Assembly (NCBI GenBank): GCA_045046875.1
Contig: JASFYY010000118.1
Location: 9,841-73,840, forward strand
Reading direction: 5' to 3'
Source of the DNA: Verrucomicrobiota bacterium
GTDB taxonomy: Bacteria; Verrucomicrobiota; Verrucomicrobiia; Verrucomicrobiales; DEV007
DNA: 64,000 nt
The number at the start of each line of letters is the position of its first letter. The first letter of the stretch is position 1. The notes under the pieces were generated by a model, which was given only the letters and a program-made list of their open reading frames with translations, was not told where the DNA came from and did no database searches. Below are positions 1,231 through 45,019 of the stretch, in pieces. The position numbers and the translations under genes are program-made.

Positions 1231-4110
1231 ATGATATTCCGTTCTTCACTAGCTTCGTTTTTTGCCTCTGCTTTTTTCATCAGCACCTCACTGTCTAGTC
1301 TTGCTGCTGCCCCAAAAAGCGAATCCTTTTTTGAATCCAAAATTGCGCCCATTCTCGAAGCGAATTGCCTCGAGTGTCACAACAGCAATGTCAGCAAAGG
1401 AAATTTGTCACTGACATCCCTCAAGGAAACACTTGCTGGTGGCGAAGATGGCCCAGGGTTGATTCCATCCAATCCCGACAAAAGCCGCTTGGTCCAATAC
1501 ATCAGTGGACCGGATCCGGACATGCCTAAAAAGAAGGACGCCCTTTCTGCCGATCAAGTGAAACTGATTCGCCAGTGGATTGCCAAAGGAGCCGACTGGC
1601 CCATGCAAGTGGTGCTGCGCGAAAAATCCAAAGGCGATAAATCCTGGTGGGCCTACATTCCACTCTCGGACAAAAAACCGCCCTCCCCAGCTAAGCTCCC
1701 TCCCGAATGGAGCCTCAACCCGATTGACCGTTACATTTTTGCCGGACTGGCAGAAAAAAAGCTCCAACCCAACCCGCCGGCTGACCGCCACGCGCTCATC
1801 CGCAGAGTGACTTACGACCTCACCGGACTGCCTCCCACTGCAAAAGAAATCGATACTTTTGTCAACGACTCCGGCCCCACCGCCTACCGCCAACTCATCG
1901 AACGGTTGCTCGATTCACCTGCTTATGGTGAACGCTGGGGGCGTCACTGGTTGGATGTGATTCGTTTTGGTGAAAGCATCGGTTTTGAGCGTAACGGCAT
2001 CATCGACAATGCCTGGCCCTTCCGTGACTACGTGATCAAATCATTCAACGACGACAAACCCTTCGACCAATTCACCCTGGAGCATCTTGCTGGTGACGTC
2101 ATAGCTCCCAACAATCCTGCCATCGAAGTTGGCACGACTTTTCTAGTCTGTGGCCCTTTCGACAATGTCGGCAATCAGGACCTTGTTCAGAAAGCCCAGA
2201 TCCGCGCCAATACGATTGATGAAATTGTCCGCGCCACTGGCGAAGCTTTTCTCGCTACCACCATCGGATGCGCCCGCTGCCACGACCACAAATTTGATCC
2301 TGTGAGGCAGGAAGATTATTACGCTCTTTATGCCACCTTCGCCGGTGTCAAACACGGTGCCCGTGTCATCGCGCCCGCCAAAGACAAAAAAGCACGTGCT
2401 GACAAACTGAAATTACTCACCGATAACAAAAACAAGCTCAGCAAAGAAAAATCTTCCCTGGAAAATAGCGTCATGGCTCGGGCGGAAAAAAAGGCATCCA
2501 GCTATGACGCCGCTTATACCCGCCCCGCAACCGAGCGTTACGGAACCGAAGAAACCTTTGCTCCGGTCAAAGCAAAACACCTGCGATTCACTTCTGAAGG
2601 TTTAGACACCAATCCCAACGCAAGCTCGGGTTTTCGTCTCGACGAATTTGAAGTCTGGACCTCCGGCAAAAAAACACGCAATGTTGCCCTCGCTAGCAAT
2701 GGAGGAAGCGCCGAAGGGAAAAGCCGCATCGCCGGTGACTTTGCAGGAGCTTACGGAGCACAGCTCACTATCGACGGTAAATTTGGAGCTCGCTGGGTGG
2801 CATCTTCACCGCAACTGACCATCACCTTCGCAAAGCCTGAAACCATCCAACGGGTCTTCTTCTCCAGTGACCGGCTCAAACAGCTGGTCAAACACAGCAA
2901 AACCACCTTCGTCGGAGAATACCGCATTGAAATTTCAACCGACGGCAAAAACTGGACCGAAGTCGCCAACTCCCACGACCGCAAAGCGGCCACTGCCGCC
3001 CAACGAAAAAAACGTTTCCTCAAACTAGAAACCCAAGCCGATGAAGGCAAACGCCTTGCCGCCATTTCCGCCGAACTCAGAAAAACCGAAACCGCCATCA
3101 CTGCTCTTCCAACCCTTCCCTCTTGGTGGGTCGGACAGTTTGCCGAACCTCCTGAAAAGAGTTTCCACGTTTTTATCGGTGGCAGCCCCCAACGACCGGG
3201 CGCCAGCGTATTGCCCGCCAGCCTCTCAACCTTGAGCGAAGTCACGCCCTCATACCAATTAAAAAACGAAAGCCCGGAAAAAGAACGCCGCCTGGCACTG
3301 GCAAAATGGATCATCAACCAAGACAATCCGCTCACCCCACGGGTGCTCGCCAACCGCCTGTGGCATTACCACTTTGGCACTGGCTTGGTGGATACTCCCA
3401 GCGACTTTGGTTATATGGGATCCAAACCCACCCACCCCGAACTGCTCGACTGGCTCGCCCGTCGAATTCATCAAACCGGCTGGCGTCTGAAAGACGTGCA
3501 CCGTGACATCCTGCTCTCCCAAACCTACCAACAGTCCTCCGCCTACCGCAGCGACGCCGCCAAGGTCGACTCTGATTCCCGCCTCTTGTGGCGCTTCCCT
3601 CCCCGCCGCCTCTCCGCAGAAGAAATCCGCGATACGCTGCTGACCCTCTCTGGCAAGCTCAACAACAAAATGGGCGGCCCCGGCTTCCGTTTATACCAAT
3701 ACCTGGTGGACAACGTATCAACTTACGTCCCGCTCGACCACCACGGCCCGGAAACCTGGCGACGCTCGGTTTACCATCAAAACGCCCGCGCCGCTTTTGT
3801 CGATCTGCTCTCCGAATTCGACTGCCCCGACAATGCTTTTGCCACCCCGAGGCGTTCTTCCACCACCACACCCTTACAGGCGCTCACCCTGATGAATCAT
3901 AGCTTCACAGTTGAAATGGCTGGATTTTTCGCCCAGCGACTGAAACAAAAAAACGTCGCCGCGCAAGTGGATGAAGCTTTTTTGCTCGCCTACGGCAGAC
4001 CTCCCGCCACAAAGGAAAAACAAGCCGCCACCCAACTCATCCAACAACACGGGCTCACCGCATTCTGCCGTGCCTTGCTCAACTCCAACGAATTGATCTA
4101 TCTCAACTAA
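1231..4110 (+). CDS. Planctomycete cytochrome c / DUF1549 (PSCyt2) / DUF1553 (PSD1) protein with inserted discoidin-like (F5/8C-like) modules
   Basis: Signal peptide; CLECH and [11 protein letters not shown] heme motifs; YGERWGRHWLD, PTHPELLDWLA, TTTPLQALTLMN. ATG 1231 preferred over TTG 1201. Confidence 0.9.
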   Translation: MIFRSSLASFFASAFFISTSLSSLAAAPKSESFFESKIAPILEANCLECHNSNVSKGNLSLTSLKETLAGGEDGPGLIPSNPDKSRLVQYISGPDPDMPKKKDALSADQVKLIRQWIAKGADWPMQVVLREKSKGDKSWWAYIPLSDKKPPSPAKLPPEWSLNPIDRYIFAGLAEKKLQPNPPADRHALIRRVTYDLTGLPPTAKEIDTFVNDSGPTAYRQLIERLLDSPAYGERWGRHWLDVIRFGESIGFERNGIIDNAWPFRDYVIKSFNDDKPFDQFTLEHLAGDVIAPNNPAIEVGTTFLVCGPFDNVGNQDLVQKAQIRANTIDEIVRATGEAFLATTIGCARCHDHKFDPVRQEDYYALYATFAGVKHGARVIAPAKDKKARADKLKLLTDNKNKLSKEKSSLENSVMARAEKKASSYDAAYTRPATERYGTEETFAPVKAKHLRFTSEGLDTNPNASSGFRLDEFEVWTSGKKTRNVALASNGGSAEGKSRIAGDFAGAYGAQLTIDGKFGARWVASSPQLTITFAKPETIQRVFFSSDRLKQLVKHSKTTFVGEYRIEISTDGKNWTEVANSHDRKAATAAQRKKRFLKLETQADEGKRLAAISAELRKTETAITALPTLPSWWVGQFAEPPEKSFHVFIGGSPQRPGASVLPASLSTLSEVTPSYQLKNESPEKERRLALAKWIINQDNPLTPRVLANRLWHYHFGTGLVDTPSDFGYMGSKPTHPELLDWLARRIHQTGWRLKDVHRDILLSQTYQQSSAYRSDAAKVDSDSRLLWRFPPRRLSAEEIRDTLLTLSGKLNNKMGGPGFRLYQYLVDNVSTYVPLDHHGPETWRRSVYHQNARAAFVDLLSEFDCPDNAFATPRRSSTTTPLQALTLMNHSFTVEMAGFFAQRLKQKNVAAQVDEAFLLAYGRPPATKEKQAATQLIQQHGLTAFCRALLNSNELIYLN

Positions 4111-39628: not shown

Positions 39629-40684
39629 TTATTCGGCCAACGTTGTCCAGTAATAGTAAGCTTCTGGACTGATACCTTTCAAGCGTTGCAGGATCGTAAA
39701 ATTTTCCGGTAGCTGGTGGTCTTTGATTTGATCAATGTGTGAAACATCGAAAACAGGGAGATTTTCGGAAATTGAATCACGTCCGATAATCGAAACGAGG
39801 GCTGCGGTTTTTGCAGCAGCGATTTTGGCCTGCGGCAGTCGGAAGCGGCAATCAATCAAGTGATTGGGCAGCTGCTTGATGCCGCGACGAAGGAGGCGGG
39901 TATGTTCCGTTTCAGTGAACCCTTTCAAATCCAGGGAGCAAAGTTGAAAGCAAGTTTCGATGGTGTCGGCAAGGTAATCCGCGTAGCTGGGGGCGGAATC
40001 GCGGTAGGAGCATTCGGCTGAGTGTGCCGTTCGGTTGGCAGCTGCAACAGATTCTAGATCAGTTACTACATCGTAGAGTTGTGCAATGTCGAAGAGTTGC
40101 TTGATCACTTGTTGACTGAAGCGCTCGGTCAAAGGCACGCCGATGGTGTTGGGAGCAAAGGCGGTGAGTTTGTCGCCGAGTAGAGCATTCACCGTGGGCG
40201 TAGTCACAAATACGGGTTTCGATGTTTCAATGAAGGGAGTCGTTATAGATTTCTCGACAAGATCGCTGAGGGTGTTTTTCTCGGTGACGATATCGAGCAG
40301 GATGGGAGTTTCACGCCCAGGACGGAGGGGCGAATCGTAGTAGAATTTGTAATGAAGCCGTTTGGGCAGTCGATGCTCTCCGCGCAACTGTTCTTCCCAA
40401 CGGGAAAAGGGTGTATCCGTTAATAGTGAATCGAGAATGGGAGCCAACAAGCCTGCATCGGTATCACAGACGATGTCGATATCGATGGACAGACGTTGCG
40501 GCTTGGGCAAATGCAGCAACAGCGAGGTGCCGCCTTTGAAAACAAAACCCAGACTGCTATGGGATAGCGCGCAGAGCAAGGTAAGGGCAAAAATAGCCCG
40601 TTCGAGGATCTCAGGATCGACCGCGTTCAAGCCTTCCCGTTGGGATTCGATCCATTCACGGCTATGACAATGCGGCTCGATCAT
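39629..40684 (-). CDS. AbiEii/AbiGii-family nucleotidyltransferase toxin (type IV TA)
   Basis: FVFKGGTSL...RLSIDIDI Pol-beta-like motif; LLDI; LLGDKLTAF; IKQLFDI. Confidence 0.9.
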   Translation of the reverse strand: MIEPHCHSREWIESQREGLNAVDPEILERAIFALTLLCALSHSSLGFVFKGGTSLLLHLPKPQRLSIDIDIVCDTDAGLLAPILDSLLTDTPFSRWEEQLRGEHRLPKRLHYKFYYDSPLRPGRETPILLDIVTEKNTLSDLVEKSITTPFIETSKPVFVTTPTVNALLGDKLTAFAPNTIGVPLTERFSQQVIKQLFDIAQLYDVVTDLESVAAANRTAHSAECSYRDSAPSYADYLADTIETCFQLCSLDLKGFTETEHTRLLRRGIKQLPNHLIDCRFRLPQAKIAAAKTAALVSIIGRDSISENLPVFDVSHIDQIKDHQLPENFTILQRLKGISPEAYYYWTTLAE

Positions 40685-40687
40685 GGA

Positions 40688-42781
40688 TCAGATGATGGAA
40701 GGGAGCAATTCTTTCACATCGATTTTGCGCCGCTCGGCGTAGCGTTTGAAAGCGGTGAGGTTGATTCGTTTAGCTGAAGTCAGGTTGTGCAACAAGCGGC
40801 GGTATTCTTCCAGCTCGTAAAGTCCGAGCTTTTGGATTTCGTAATAAAGATCGATCAGGGTGTGCTCTATAGGCGAGCGTTTTTCGACGTGATCGGAGGA
40901 CAGACGCGGGCGCAGGATGATCGTATCTTCTGTTTCCAAGGAAAAGGACTTTGCTGCTTCTCCGAGGGGATGAATGACGACCCTGTGTCCGGCATCGCGC
41001 AGGGAATCGGCGACCGGCTCGAAGGCGTCGCGATCCACCATCAGGAAGGTGGCGTGACGGGTTGGCAGATGATGGAAATAGGCAGCAAGTTCGCGGGTGC
41101 TCCAGAGGGTGTGGTCGAGCAGAGGGAAGTCTTGCTTGAGGCTTTTCTGCAGCGATTGCATCACAGCAATGTTCTGATCGGGAAGAAAAGCTTCGGGCAG
41201 ATCGGAATACCAGCCGCGACCAGCGTCATGAATCAGGCCCTCGCGCATCCAGTCCTGCAGGTAACGTTTGATGGTAGCGGATTCGTAATGCAGAGCCTCG
41301 GCTTCGATGGTCTTCTGAATGGTGGCTAGGTCGATGTAGTGACGGGAGAGGCCGAAGAGTTTGGGTAGCAGTTCCCCGGCGACGTAGTGCTTGCCGTCGA
41401 GGTAGGCGAGCGCGGTTTTTTCGTCCTGTTCGATGGCGATCTCGACAGCACGTTTGGCGCGGGCTAGGAGGGATTTGGAGTGGTGTGATTTGTTTCGGGA
41501 TTCAAAAACTAAGTCGCGAATTTTATTTTGAATATGTTCAGGAGCCAACCAAATCTTAAAATCAGCAATATCACTGGGATAGAGTTCAATTTGACCAGAA
41601 GAACCACTGTATCTTTGTTCCACTTGAAGCTGACCTGCAGGACTGTTCAGAAAAGTTGCCAAATAAGTAGGGTCGATGGAGTGCTCCTTAATTTTGATAA
41701 TAGTAACATGGTTGTCAGGCAAAGCTGGGTAAGGTTCTAAATAGGCAGCAGAGCGTCCTATGGTGCCTACACCAGTTCCATTAATAAGAACATTGCCTTT
41801 CTCAATAAGTAGAGAGTTGTCCCGAGGCTGAGCAAATCGATTTCCATCATCGATACGAACTGTCCCTTTGGCCACATGTTTCGAGTTCACTACAGGTAAA
41901 CCTTTCTCAGTGTAGTCGGGTTGTCTGCCCCTACTGATTTGAGACGATAAATTTCCAAGGATTTCTAACTCACCAGCTTGAGCAATTTTATTTTCAAGAG
42001 CTTCAAATTTTGGGTGGAAAAAATTAGCATCATACCGTTTCGCAGCGAATACATCACTGGCTGGTTTTTCATAACTCAATGGATTGGGCGGCTCCCAGTT
42101 ATCGAGCTTGAGCGCGGAGAGGAGGGTTTGTTCGGCTTTGTCGCGGGCTTGTTCAGAACACTCCAGCGCGATGCGTGCCGCTTGGACTTTTCCAACAATT
42201 TCCCGTTTTAGTTCAGTAGATAGTTGAGGGATCAATACTTGGTCAACGTCTTCCAATAAAAAGCCTGTTTGAACTGTTCCCCTACGAAATCTTTGTATTT
42301 GGGAAGCACCTAATTTAGACTCTAGGTAAATTGCCAAAAATTCAGCTTCTATAGAATGGGGTCGAAAAATGGCTAACTTACATGAACAAGTTGCTTTCCG
42401 GTCAGATCCTACCAAAGACAGAGCACCAACGGTTCCAACTATAGACAGCAAGACGTCCCCTTTTTCCAAGTGGGAGCGTTTCATGTGATTATCAGCAAAT
42501 GCTTCGGATGTTATTTCGATTGGATTAGATTGCTCGATAAAAAATGGTCCTGTTACATCCTGTCCGCGATAATAGGGAATCCCGCTCTCAATGAATGAAT
42601 CTGAAATTGAGAAATGGTTGCCGTCAGAAACAGCTACTAAATCAGCAATTGAGAAAGTTTTTCTAGAAGCTAGATTTTTTTCTATTAAAACATGGGATTT
42701 CTTGAAAAATTCTGCGTCGATGCGTTTCGTGCGTTCGAGATCGTAAAGTCGAATCTCGGTTGCTTCCAGCCCCTCCAACAA
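40688..42781 (-). CDS. HsdS-like specificity subunit (two TRDs) fused to C-terminal AbiEi/DUF6577-like antitoxin domain
   Basis: TRD1 (IDAEFF...GDVLLSIVGTVG...FLAIYLES) and TRD2 (RYDANFFHPK...GNVLINGTGVGTIGR...YLATFLNS), each followed by a helical spacer; then wHTH-like TIKRYLQDWMREGLIHDAGRGWYS and ...IEHTLIDLY...RYAERR. Confidence 0.82.
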   Translation of the reverse strand: MLEGLEATEIRLYDLERTKRIDAEFFKKSHVLIEKNLASRKTFSIADLVAVSDGNHFSISDSFIESGIPYYRGQDVTGPFFIEQSNPIEITSEAFADNHMKRSHLEKGDVLLSIVGTVGALSLVGSDRKATCSCKLAIFRPHSIEAEFLAIYLESKLGASQIQRFRRGTVQTGFLLEDVDQVLIPQLSTELKREIVGKVQAARIALECSEQARDKAEQTLLSALKLDNWEPPNPLSYEKPASDVFAAKRYDANFFHPKFEALENKIAQAGELEILGNLSSQISRGRQPDYTEKGLPVVNSKHVAKGTVRIDDGNRFAQPRDNSLLIEKGNVLINGTGVGTIGRSAAYLEPYPALPDNHVTIIKIKEHSIDPTYLATFLNSPAGQLQVEQRYSGSSGQIELYPSDIADFKIWLAPEHIQNKIRDLVFESRNKSHHSKSLLARAKRAVEIAIEQDEKTALAYLDGKHYVAGELLPKLFGLSRHYIDLATIQKTIEAEALHYESATIKRYLQDWMREGLIHDAGRGWYSDLPEAFLPDQNIAVMQSLQKSLKQDFPLLDHTLWSTRELAAYFHHLPTRHATFLMVDRDAFEPVADSLRDAGHRVVIHPLGEAAKSFSLETEDTIILRPRLSSDHVEKRSPIEHTLIDLYYEIQKLGLYELEEYRRLLHNLTSAKRINLTAFKRYAERRKIDVKELLPSII

Positions 42782-42810
42782 GTCCTCGTAACGAGCTTTG
42801 TCGAAGGGGC

Positions 42811-44916
42811 TTACCCTTTTCCCGGCGCGAACGACAGGCCCTCTCGTTTAGCGAACTCCCCAAAGGCCTCCGCAATTCCATCCTGCGTCTTGCCGTCGTG
42901 ATTGAACAAGTCGTGTTTCACGATCAGATGCCCATGCCCATCGAGCACAAACTCATCGAGACTGCTTGCGGTCGCTTCGTAGCGATTAGGCACCTCATCC
43001 CATTTGTCCGCCACCTGCTTGCGGTCACTTCCATTTCCTTCCTTGATCTCCAACAAATCCTTGCGTTTCAAATAAATCTTCTCCCCCGAGTTGTCTTTAC
43101 TCGACTCCTGCATCGTCGCAAAAAAGATCGGGTAATCGTCTTTTTTCGGACAGAGTTTCTCGTCCCACTTCTGCACCAACAGCACCGAAGTCTTAGTTCC
43201 CGTGTGAGGCTTGAACACATTGCCATGCAGTCCCACCACCGCCAGAATGCGACAGTGCTCCATGATGTATTCGCGCAGGTGTTTGTCAGAGGAATTATTA
43301 AACCGCCCCTGTGGCAGCACTACCGCCATGCGTCCACCGGGTTTCAAAAAATCCAGATTGCGTTCGATGAACAACAAGTCTCTACCGACTTTCGTCTGGT
43401 ATTTGCCATTGGGCTTTTTGCCCAGGTCATACTTGGCGAGAATACGTGACTCTTTTATGTCCCCGGCAAAAGGCGGGTTTGCCAGCAGCACATCAAAGTT
43501 GAAATGATGATCACTGTTTTTCTTCGCCCGCAGTTTTTTCAGCTTCTTCCAGCCTTGATTATAAGTATCGATCCACTCTTCATCCTTGGTTTTTTCATCC
43601 CAGCGCTCCCAATCCAGTGTATTGAGATGCAACACATTGGTCTGTCCATCCCCAGCGATCAAGTTAAGCGTGCGCGCCACCCGCACCGAACGTTCGTCAA
43701 AATCTATCGCGAAGACCTTGTCGTTCACGTAGTCGGTGCAACGCTGCGATTTTTCCTCAGCGGTGAACAAATGACTCTTCGGCAGTCCCTCGTCGGCGAG
43801 GATTTTCTCCCACACATGAAAGATCGAGTGAACCGGAAAACCACAACTGCCTGCCGCAGTATCGATCAGCGTCTCATCCTCCTTGGGATCCAGCATCTTT
43901 ACGCACATGTCGATGACATAACGCGGAGTGAAGTATTGCCCCTTTTCGCCCTTGCTCGATTTGTTGATCAGGTATTCGAAAGCCTCGTCCACTACATCGA
44001 GGTTGGAGTTGAAAAGCTTCACATCCTGCAGGGACGAAACACAAACTGAAAGATGGGAAGCGGTCAGGTCGATCTTGGAATCCGGACTGAAAACGCCTTC
44101 CCATTTTTTCTTAGCTAGATTAAAAAGTTCGCCGATCTTCTCCTTCAGCTCGGTTTCGGTATCACCGTAGTTGCGAAACTCCAGATGGCGCTTTTTGTTC
44201 CGCCCCGATGACATTTCATCAAAGAGCTTGGTGAAAATCAGTTTGAACAATTCCTCGAAAACATCCACCCCGGCATTGGCCAGCACCTCGTCCTCCATTT
44301 CGAGAATCAAATCCTTGAGCGATTTGCGCTCGTTGATGAGCTTGTCCTTTTTGACTAAGTCATCAATCGTCCAGCGCTCGGTGAGGATGTCCGAAAGTTT
44401 TTCCGTCGCTTTGGGGATACCAGGAATGTCCTCGAAAAAATTCGGATCCTTGCGGTGGTAATACGAGATCGACTCCCCATTAGTCCACACTCCGATTGGA
44501 GCACCCGTAGCATTGCAATAGGATTTGAGCTGCTCCTTGCCGTCTTTGAGTTTGGGTTTTTTGAGCTCGACGATCAGATAAACCGAACGCGTATCCTGTT
44601 TATCAAAAATGACAATGTCCGCACGCTTTTTCTCCCGCCCGAAGCTGACCGAATACTCCAGCTCCATACGGTCGAGCGGATAGTTGAGATCTTCATGCAA
44701 TACGCGCAGATAGAGCTGACGAACAGCTTCTTCAGGCGTGAGTTTAATGTCCTTTTCCCGCACCAAGCAATGGATATAAGGGGCATCCTTGCCGCGAACC
44801 GTTTTTTCAAACACCAATTTCTCGAAAGCCTCAATCTGTTCCTTAGTAAATTGGCTGAGACTATAGTTCGAGTCCTTAAGAATGGATGAGAGTTGGAAAG
44901 TGCTTATTTCAGTCAT
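42811..44916 (-). CDS. Fused endonuclease (HsdR_N-like PD-(D/E)xK) + gamma-class N6-adenine methyltransferase (Type IIB/IIG-like RM subunit)
   Basis: TPEEAVRQ, RADIVIF..IVELKKP, GQYFTPR, DTAAGSCGF (motif I), ANPPFAG (motif IV), LFIERNLDFLKPGGRMAVVLP, VFKPHTGTKT. ATG 44916 preferred over GTG 44958. Confidence 0.92.
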   Translation of the reverse strand: MTEISTFQLSSILKDSNYSLSQFTKEQIEAFEKLVFEKTVRGKDAPYIHCLVREKDIKLTPEEAVRQLYLRVLHEDLNYPLDRMELEYSVSFGREKKRADIVIFDKQDTRSVYLIVELKKPKLKDGKEQLKSYCNATGAPIGVWTNGESISYYHRKDPNFFEDIPGIPKATEKLSDILTERWTIDDLVKKDKLINERKSLKDLILEMEDEVLANAGVDVFEELFKLIFTKLFDEMSSGRNKKRHLEFRNYGDTETELKEKIGELFNLAKKKWEGVFSPDSKIDLTASHLSVCVSSLQDVKLFNSNLDVVDEAFEYLINKSSKGEKGQYFTPRYVIDMCVKMLDPKEDETLIDTAAGSCGFPVHSIFHVWEKILADEGLPKSHLFTAEEKSQRCTDYVNDKVFAIDFDERSVRVARTLNLIAGDGQTNVLHLNTLDWERWDEKTKDEEWIDTYNQGWKKLKKLRAKKNSDHHFNFDVLLANPPFAGDIKESRILAKYDLGKKPNGKYQTKVGRDLLFIERNLDFLKPGGRMAVVLPQGRFNNSSDKHLREYIMEHCRILAVVGLHGNVFKPHTGTKTSVLLVQKWDEKLCPKKDDYPIFFATMQESSKDNSGEKIYLKRKDLLEIKEGNGSDRKQVADKWDEVPNRYEATASSLDEFVLDGHGHLIVKHDLFNHDGKTQDGIAEAFGEFAKREGLSFAPGKG
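42817..42823 (-). promoter_or_regulatory. Candidate -1 programmed ribosomal frameshift site G_GGA_AAA
   Basis: X_XXY_YYZ heptamer correctly phased, one codon before the RM stop; the -1 frame is the S-gene frame. Confidence 0.6.
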
Positions 44917-44974
44917 CGTGATGCGAGTTAAAACCCTATTGAATAATAGGAACCTCACTAAAAATCAATACAAC

Positions 44975-45019
44975 AATCCCTCTTTGTCACTTTTTTAAAA
45001 AATGTGACAAAGAGGGATT
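44975..45019. promoter_or_regulatory. Perfect 16-bp inverted repeat (candidate operator) upstream of the defence operon
   Basis: AATCCCTCTTTGTCAC-(13 nt A/T)-GTGACAAAGAGGGATT, in a divergent intergenic region. Confidence 0.7.

Follow-up and report, generated by a model that had tools for sequence, protein, structure and literature searches.

How does a restriction-modification (RM) gene work together with a specificity (S) region that follows it in another reading frame and has no conserved start of its own? This question is raised by a 64,000-nucleotide (nt) stretch of DNA from a Verrucomicrobiota bacterium (assembly GCA_045046875.1, contig JASFYY010000118.1, positions 9,841 to 73,840; hereafter the window, to which all positions refer unless a locus is named). 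Its minus strand carries an RM gene, an S region and, fused to the end of the latter, an AbiEi-like antitoxin domain. A reading made from the sequence alone had proposed that partial -1 frameshifting joins RM to S. Comparison with homologous loci strongly supports this proposal: very probably, a programmed -1 ribosomal frameshift yields both RM and an RM-S fusion from one mRNA.

The RM gene (42811..44916, minus strand like all genes of this locus) runs from ATG 44916 to TAA 42811 and encodes 701 amino acids (aa); an alternative GTG start at 44958 would add 14 aa. Near its end lies the slippery heptamer G_GGA_AAA (Gly-Lys; 42817..42823), the predicted -1 shift site, in RM phase, and one codon further on the RM stop TAA (42811..42813). 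The S region (41393..42817) occupies the -1 frame, which has its upstream stop at 42850-42848 and is open from 42847. The two frames overlap by 34 nt (about 35 had been claimed), and this overlap contains the heptamer. A -1 shift would give an RM-S-AbiEi fusion product of 1409 aa. Coordinates and phase of the heptamer proved correct on re-checking and the claimed lengths of about 701 and 1409 aa were borne out; the observation itself is confirmed.

An assembly indel as the origin of the junction—for which a check of raw reads had been suggested—is excluded by related contigs. Contigs of two other sequencing runs, which stem from related strains and not from this one, cross the junction gap-free: contig X1 spans 42069-42858 with 55 substitutions and contig X3 spans 42765-42965 with 7. 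Neither a run of the same strain nor an RNA run was listed among the sequencing runs searched (best share 0.20). A phased heptamer is common in this genome, at 234 of 3439 long open reading frame (ORF) ends, and on its own it is weak proof because 18 of 268 comparable gene ends, where an ORF end overlaps a long -1 ORF, share it. The fold at the RM/S junction is the most stable of those 18 (-28.2 kcal/mol, the next being -20.5 kcal/mol).

For the comparison, the best 80 of at least 570 genome matches and the best 80 of at least 579 metagenome matches were taken; the metagenome query was the fused protein of locus L030, which favours fusions. Together with the window, this gave 161 junctions, of which 145 were scorable; 13 loci lacked the RM end and 3 were cut just past it. 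The RM proteins are 61-83% identical to that of the window, and the named loci cover seven phyla. At 133 of the 145 junctions S lies in the -1 frame, and each of these RM ends carries a phased heptamer (T_TTT_TTT in 68, G_GGA_AAG in 33, T_TTT_TTC in 28 and G_GGA_AAA in 4), so that the predicted conservation of phase and heptamer among homologs is found—and nine in-frame fusions, discussed below, keep the site as well. The RM stop follows 0-1 codons past the heptamer in 115 of 134 non-fused heptamer loci. In L196, the heptamer is C_CCT_TTT (3197-3203), lies 17 codons further on and comes with its own, different hairpin. All five heptamers fit the patterns V_VVA_AAR or H_HHU_UUY, the most efficient classes in E. 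coli according to the accessible part of PMC4066793. An even draw of genomes from the order and phylum added 12 new loci: 9 bear the signal, including L178 with its S broken further on, two have an ATG-started S and one has no visible S. On viral contigs, 9 of 9 loci bear it. Among 5426 E. coli genomes, a full-length homolog was found in none.

Codon usage indicates that the heptamer is kept beyond protein-coding need. After removal of duplicates (139 loci), slippery codons are used at 101 of 101 Phe-Phe and 36 of 36 Gly-Lys junctions, while each gene's own usage leads to an expectation of 25% and 6%, respectively; inside genes, the same dipeptides are slippery in only 14 of 173 (Phe-Phe) and 12 of 520 (Gly-Lys) cases. 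In a FastTree phylogeny built from 147 RM proteins, 8 switches between G-type and T-type heptamers are required, and at least 5 of these are forced by well-supported branches. The Shine-Dalgarno (SD)-like run GAGAGGG (42839..42845) does lie 15 nt 5' of the heptamer, as had been noted, and might be a minor stimulator in the window, where its anti-SD pairing amounts to -6.1 kcal/mol. It is not a family-wide element: pairing reaches -4 kcal/mol or lower in 68 of 133 loci, and the run is partly accounted for by Lys-Glu codons.

Downstream of the heptamer lies a predicted stem-loop (42768..42811), in which 42811-42798 pair with 42781-42768 in a 14-bp stem, complemented by an apical 3-bp stem. It begins 5 nt past the heptamer, buries two TTG codons that could serve as S starts, and has a folding energy of -27 kcal/mol (z-score -3.5; 0 of 200 shuffles are as stable). 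The sequence-only reading had pointed out two small 3' hairpins; one long stem is the main structure instead, and one of the small candidates, AGGG-TAAGC-CCCT, was rejected as it is absent from the lowest-energy fold and not conserved. Across the family, the 65 nt past the heptamer fold with z < -2 in 140 of 145 loci; an upstream control reaches this value in 19 of 145 (30 shuffles per locus). The longest helix begins 3-7 nt downstream of the heptamer in 143 of 143 loci, and a hairpin at such a fixed distance is the geometry of ribosomal stimulators. When 74 distinct sequences selected for hairpins of the same length were aligned without gaps, 90.5% of cells were paired, compared with at most 62% in slid controls; the structure had been derived from the same sequences, which favours this score. 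Both-sided changes are present at 8 of 18 stem pairs; one pair is UA in 50 sequences, CG in 18, GC in 3, AU in 2 and UG in 1, and is never broken. The predicted hairpin covaries across the family, and it is likely the 3' stimulator of the frameshift. An Rfam scan gave no relevant family, with two weak miRNA matches far below cut-off.

The same two proteins could also arise one step earlier, if RNA polymerase added a base in the T or G/A run and thereby produced mixed mRNAs. Such transcriptional slippage would find T runs of 5-8 at 108 of 145 junctions; U7 is possibly slippage-prone, as far as the accessible part of PMC4066793 goes, and the few loci with S in the +1 frame could reflect a different slip. 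However, 37 loci including the window have no T run longer than four and bear G_GGA_AAR instead, the codon-phased heptamer is kept in runs of 6, 7 and 8 T alike, and the fixed spacing of the hairpin fits the ribosome. We hence consider transcriptional slippage very unlikely.

Similar arguments bear on a phase-variable DNA repeat—or a recurrent sequencing error—that would toggle the RM-S fusion. RM genes are known phase-variation targets in the literature as far as its text was accessible, T runs of 6-8 are frequent and the three +1 loci may be slips. Against this, the -1 phase is held over T6 (28 loci), T7 (28) and T8 (40), and the window site has no run longer than four and no indel in related contigs. 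Moreover, a truly variable tract exists at the end of S, whose phase is scattered while the RM/S junction of the same loci stays fixed. This poly-G or AGAC tract joins a third target-recognition domain (TRD) in 19 loci (L139, L140, L143-L145, L147-L150, L153, L156-L159, L009, L106, L111, L025 and L088) and is in frame in 5, +1 in 5 and -1 in 9 of them. As its phase differs even among near-identical loci with an unchanged RM/S junction, it is likely a phase-variable specificity switch on top of the frameshift system, and it serves as an internal control for the look of a DNA slippage site in the same family. The repeat or sequencing-error explanation is largely refuted, and we give it next to no weight. 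A Gly-Gly-Lys at the end of S, once a candidate for a second frameshift site, turned out to be this variable poly-G tract. In L016, L050, L061, L107 and L178, the frameshift signal is intact and S is broken further downstream.

The stem-loop bears a second layer of information: read in the -1 frame, its sequence encodes a conserved linker, SPFDxxxYxxLLEGL. The claim that the segment upstream of the TTG codons is conserved as protein is supported by the Tyr of the unpaired loop, kept in 73 of 74 sequences (TAT 50, TAC 23), and by the -1 frame, which is stop-free over the stretch in 74 of 74, while the other two frames contain stops in 73 and 69 of 74. The TTG TTG pair (Leu-Leu; 42776..42781), located in the 3' arm of the stem, provides the sole nearby candidate S starts of the window, and both these codons (TTG 42781/42778) and the adjoining GAGGA were found as described. 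Of 133 loci of the family, 4 have an SD-like site ahead of the first possible S start; 22, the window among them, offer any start with such a site in the first 21 codons, and 9 offer no start at all in this range. An S start at a GTG or ATG that overlaps the RM stop was rejected as the general solution: a start codon lies at most one codon from the heptamer in just 6 of 133 loci. Eight distant homologs of 27-56% identity do have the S ATG at the RM stop (L163, L164, L165, L167, L171, L172, L184 and L187, some scored by eye), and these bear neither heptamer nor linker.

These data allow for judging a two-gene arrangement with hairpin-gated coupling, in which ribosomes terminating on RM would melt the stem and S would begin at TTG, with no fusion being made. 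The TTG is indeed within the stem and fully paired in 106 of 119 loci, S from TTG would be full length, the window provides GAGGA, and annotation places the S start at TTG, with the PADLOC model beginning at residue 26. Coupling, however, leaves the 137 of 137 slippery codon choices, the fixed phase, the coding-type conservation 5' of TTG and the in-frame fusions unaccounted for, and the scarcity of SD-like sites and of starts does not favour it. Coupling without fusion thus appears highly improbable to us, whereas some loci may use a coupled TTG start as a minor additional route, and a minor independent S start may exist at the second TTG of the window. Taken together, neither an indel, nor a random phase or uniformly in-frame homologs, nor an independent TTG start as the only route to S was found.

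The strongest single argument for ribosomal frameshifting—predicted by none of its rivals—is an inverted wiring. In 9 of the 145 loci RM and S are fused in frame, and 9 of 9 keep T_TTT_TTT at the same place; here, it is the -1 frame that stops, 0 codons past the heptamer in eight loci and 2 codons past it in one. The median z-score of their hairpins is -4.2. In such loci, ribosomes that do not shift would make RM-S, and a -1 shift would lead to an immediate stop and yield RM, as in dnaX. A tenth fused locus with the inverted signal is the gene SYNPCC7002_RS15140 on pAQ6 of Picosynechococcus PCC 7002 (L161:4001-7540), annotated with 1179 aa. The same hairpin type is present in both wirings among close relatives (L084 and L155 fused, L085 and L090 -1), and 3 changes of wiring are needed on the RM tree. 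Since both wirings would result in RM plus RM-S, the product pair appears to be what selection keeps. In a protein search, all 120 matches listed were of RM length, with no fusions among the matches listed. In PCC 7002, the motif GG(6mA)N5CTTC is methylated at 337 of 340 sites with no enzyme assigned (PMC12362590); that it is the target of the fused pAQ6 gene is only a lead. In the fused locus L030, a second GGGAAAG stretch follows right after the hairpin (L030:7040-7062), out of -1 phase.

Several points speak against this interpretation or narrow it. The loci are related, and counts overstate their independence. The heptamer of the window, G_GGA_AAA, was described as inefficient in early E. 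coli work and is weaker than G_GGA_AAG (PMC4066793, accessible part). GAGGA lies 4 nt upstream of the second TTG and pairs with -5.9 kcal/mol, a TTG-started S would have about the same length as the ATG-started S of distant homologs, and a start overlaps the RM stop in L003, L182, L183 and L194. One fused locus bears a weak hairpin (z-score -0.65). Three of the 145 junctions (L010, L013 and L019) are in +1 phase, which fits no -1 model. Finally, a free RM is not a universal need, because the single-chain Type IIB enzyme TstI acts as a homotetramer, as stated in the accessible part of PMC4027205. Two of the +1 loci (L013:7068-7080, L019:7065-7077) form one clade: the run has five T's, the RM stop comes at once, the hairpin is intact and S is in +1. 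A shared inactivation, an assembly error or a +1/-2 variant might be behind this.

Under programmed frameshifting, ribosomes would pause at the hairpin, and two tRNAs would re-pair one base back. Ribosomes that do not shift would terminate at the RM stop just behind the heptamer and release free RM of 701 aa; shifting ribosomes would continue into the RM-S fusion, which in the window is RM-S-AbiEi. RM and RM-S would then assemble into a restriction-modification enzyme of (RM)2S composition, similar to Type IIB, with the shift rate setting the RM : RM-S ratio. We infer this assembly by analogy to two systems, each as described in the accessible part of its source: BsaXI is an (RM)2S enzyme (PMC11997821), and in vitro DNA cleavage by an engineered fusion of EcoKI M and S required the addition of free M (PMC3510504).

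The enzyme looks Type IIB-like in sequence and predicted fold. RM bears a nuclease-type HSDR_N_2 domain (residues 75-182), an N6_Mtase domain (321-641) and the NPPF motif of a gamma-class N6-adenine methyltransferase; its best solved relative is RM.BsaXI (E 3.7e-20), and with a profile built from the fused proteins, RM.BsaXI and S.BsaXI are both matched. The predicted structure of the window's -1 ORF (pLDDT 83) contains two TRDs, each followed by a long helix, and then the antitoxin region; its S fold matches the S subunit of PacII (E 1e-19) and S.BsaXI (E 5e-19). The structure of the L030 fusion was of low confidence (pLDDT 50, 9 rows) and used for the S layout only. Type I labels given by PADLOC and JGI fail because no HsdR motor subunit is nearby: the flanks of the 145 loci (66 with at least 2 kb on both sides) contain one helicase-like ORF, on the opposite strand, and the contig of the window has no ResIII match. 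MADS was rejected as well, with 318 versus 720 bits for MAD2 and 115 versus 400 bits for MAD5 at the NCBIfam cut-offs. GC content is 41-45% in the TRDs (window positions 41500-42500), compared with 58% in the antitoxin part, and this contrast suggests domain exchange. The S regions of L058 and L070 comprise 586 aa, about 100 aa above the usual length.

The AbiEi-like antitoxin domain (DUF6577; 40688..41392) forms an in-frame extension of S at its C-terminal end, and 3 nt after the common stop follows the gene of an AbiEii-family nucleotidyltransferase toxin (39629..40684). The S-AbiEi fusion with AbiEii behind it is shared by the window, L001, L003 and L049, which form one well-supported clade with G_GGA_AAA; as it is common to four related loci, the fusion is not due to a stop lost in this assembly. 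In these four loci the antitoxin is fused to S and not encoded as a stand-alone gene. At the S/antitoxin boundary, possible internal starts with SD-like sites are present in L003 (ATG) and L001 (TTG), and the boundary codon is CTC in the window and L049. Since no separate antitoxin start is evident here, the antitoxin may depend on the -1 shift in this genome—the weakest part of the finding. The proposed control of antitoxin dose by frameshift efficiency would apply to this four-locus clade. DUF6577 also occurs as a separate gene upstream of RM homologs (L165:379-1101 and L032:3275-4963, the latter with an AbiEii gene), and the association of RM and AbiE is hence wider than the fusion. Shortly before the RM start, at 44976-45018, lies a near-perfect inverted repeat, possibly an operator, for instance for the AbiEi-like domain. 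Scans for promoters and terminators showed no excess over shuffles (7 versus 5.8 and 6 versus 6.6, respectively), and downstream neighbours had a Pfam match in 20 of 50 scanned, with no common family.

A wider interpretation can be offered, tentatively and with rather less than even confidence. The RM family might use ribosomal recoding to set its subunit ratio, and its wiring might have been inverted on more than one occasion; among the RM-S genes annotated as single chains, some would then have two products; and the antitoxin of this clade would be made only via the frameshift, tying the release of the AbiEii toxin to the state of the restriction enzyme.

If frameshifting holds true, it provides a natural answer, for this RM family, to the question of how a fusion with two TRDs obtains a second catalytic chain. 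The 2014 Type II review leaves this question open, describing the imbalance of catalytic and specificity functions in single chains as not entirely understood (PMC4081073, accessible part). It would also correct the annotation of a large family, whose S genes are now started at an internal TTG, and would imply that separate cloning of S or recoding of the fused gene changes the enzyme. The family also offers a natural stimulator that covaries and is combined with three types of heptamer, and the prediction is directly testable in a model cyanobacterium.

To our knowledge, few bacterial genes outside mobile elements are subject to conserved programmed frameshifting. A search of full-text literature found none in a restriction-modification gene, most subscription papers and some supplements being outside its coverage. 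The word frameshift is absent from the accessible parts of the BsaXI paper, the Type II review, the TstI paper and a 2025 RM review. In what was accessible of the GeneTack survey, DNA methylases appear only under phase variation, and a 2016 recoding review contains no RM case in its accessible part (PMC5009743).

Among known recoding systems, the E. coli dnaX gene is the closest in logic. In dnaX, a -1 shift into a stop codon produces a short subunit of the same complex (tau/gamma), and the fused loci described here share this logic. As in dnaX and IS3-family cassettes, a phased X_XXY_YYZ heptamer, belonging to classes that IS elements use, is combined with a 3' structure (PMC4066793 and PMC5009743, accessible parts). 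Unlike in those systems, the host gene is an RM enzyme, both wirings are present within one family, the stimulator also codes for a conserved linker and the 5' SD-like element is not conserved. In its components, the system resembles the Type IIB enzymes BsaXI and BcgI, which likewise consist of a nuclease-methyltransferase chain and an S with two TRDs and have no motor; here, however, S lacks a conserved start and would be synthesised as an extension of one RM chain. RM is also about 200 aa shorter than RM.BsaXI, and the likeness to Type IIB rests on sequence and fold. The ten fused loci have RM-S in one frame like AloI, PpiI, TstI and CjeI; in contrast to the TstI homotetramer of one chain, two chains are predicted here, and the frameshift result is confined to this family and not carried over to those four enzymes. 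The engineered EcoKI M-S fusion (Type IMS) is similar in that an M-S fusion is active together with free M (PMC3510504, accessible part). It is artificial and needs HsdR, however, and the natural overlap of hsdM and hsdS represents translational coupling and not recoding. Like in AbiE type IV toxin-antitoxin systems, finally, an AbiEi-like antitoxin is located upstream of AbiEii—but here, it forms the C-terminal part of S.

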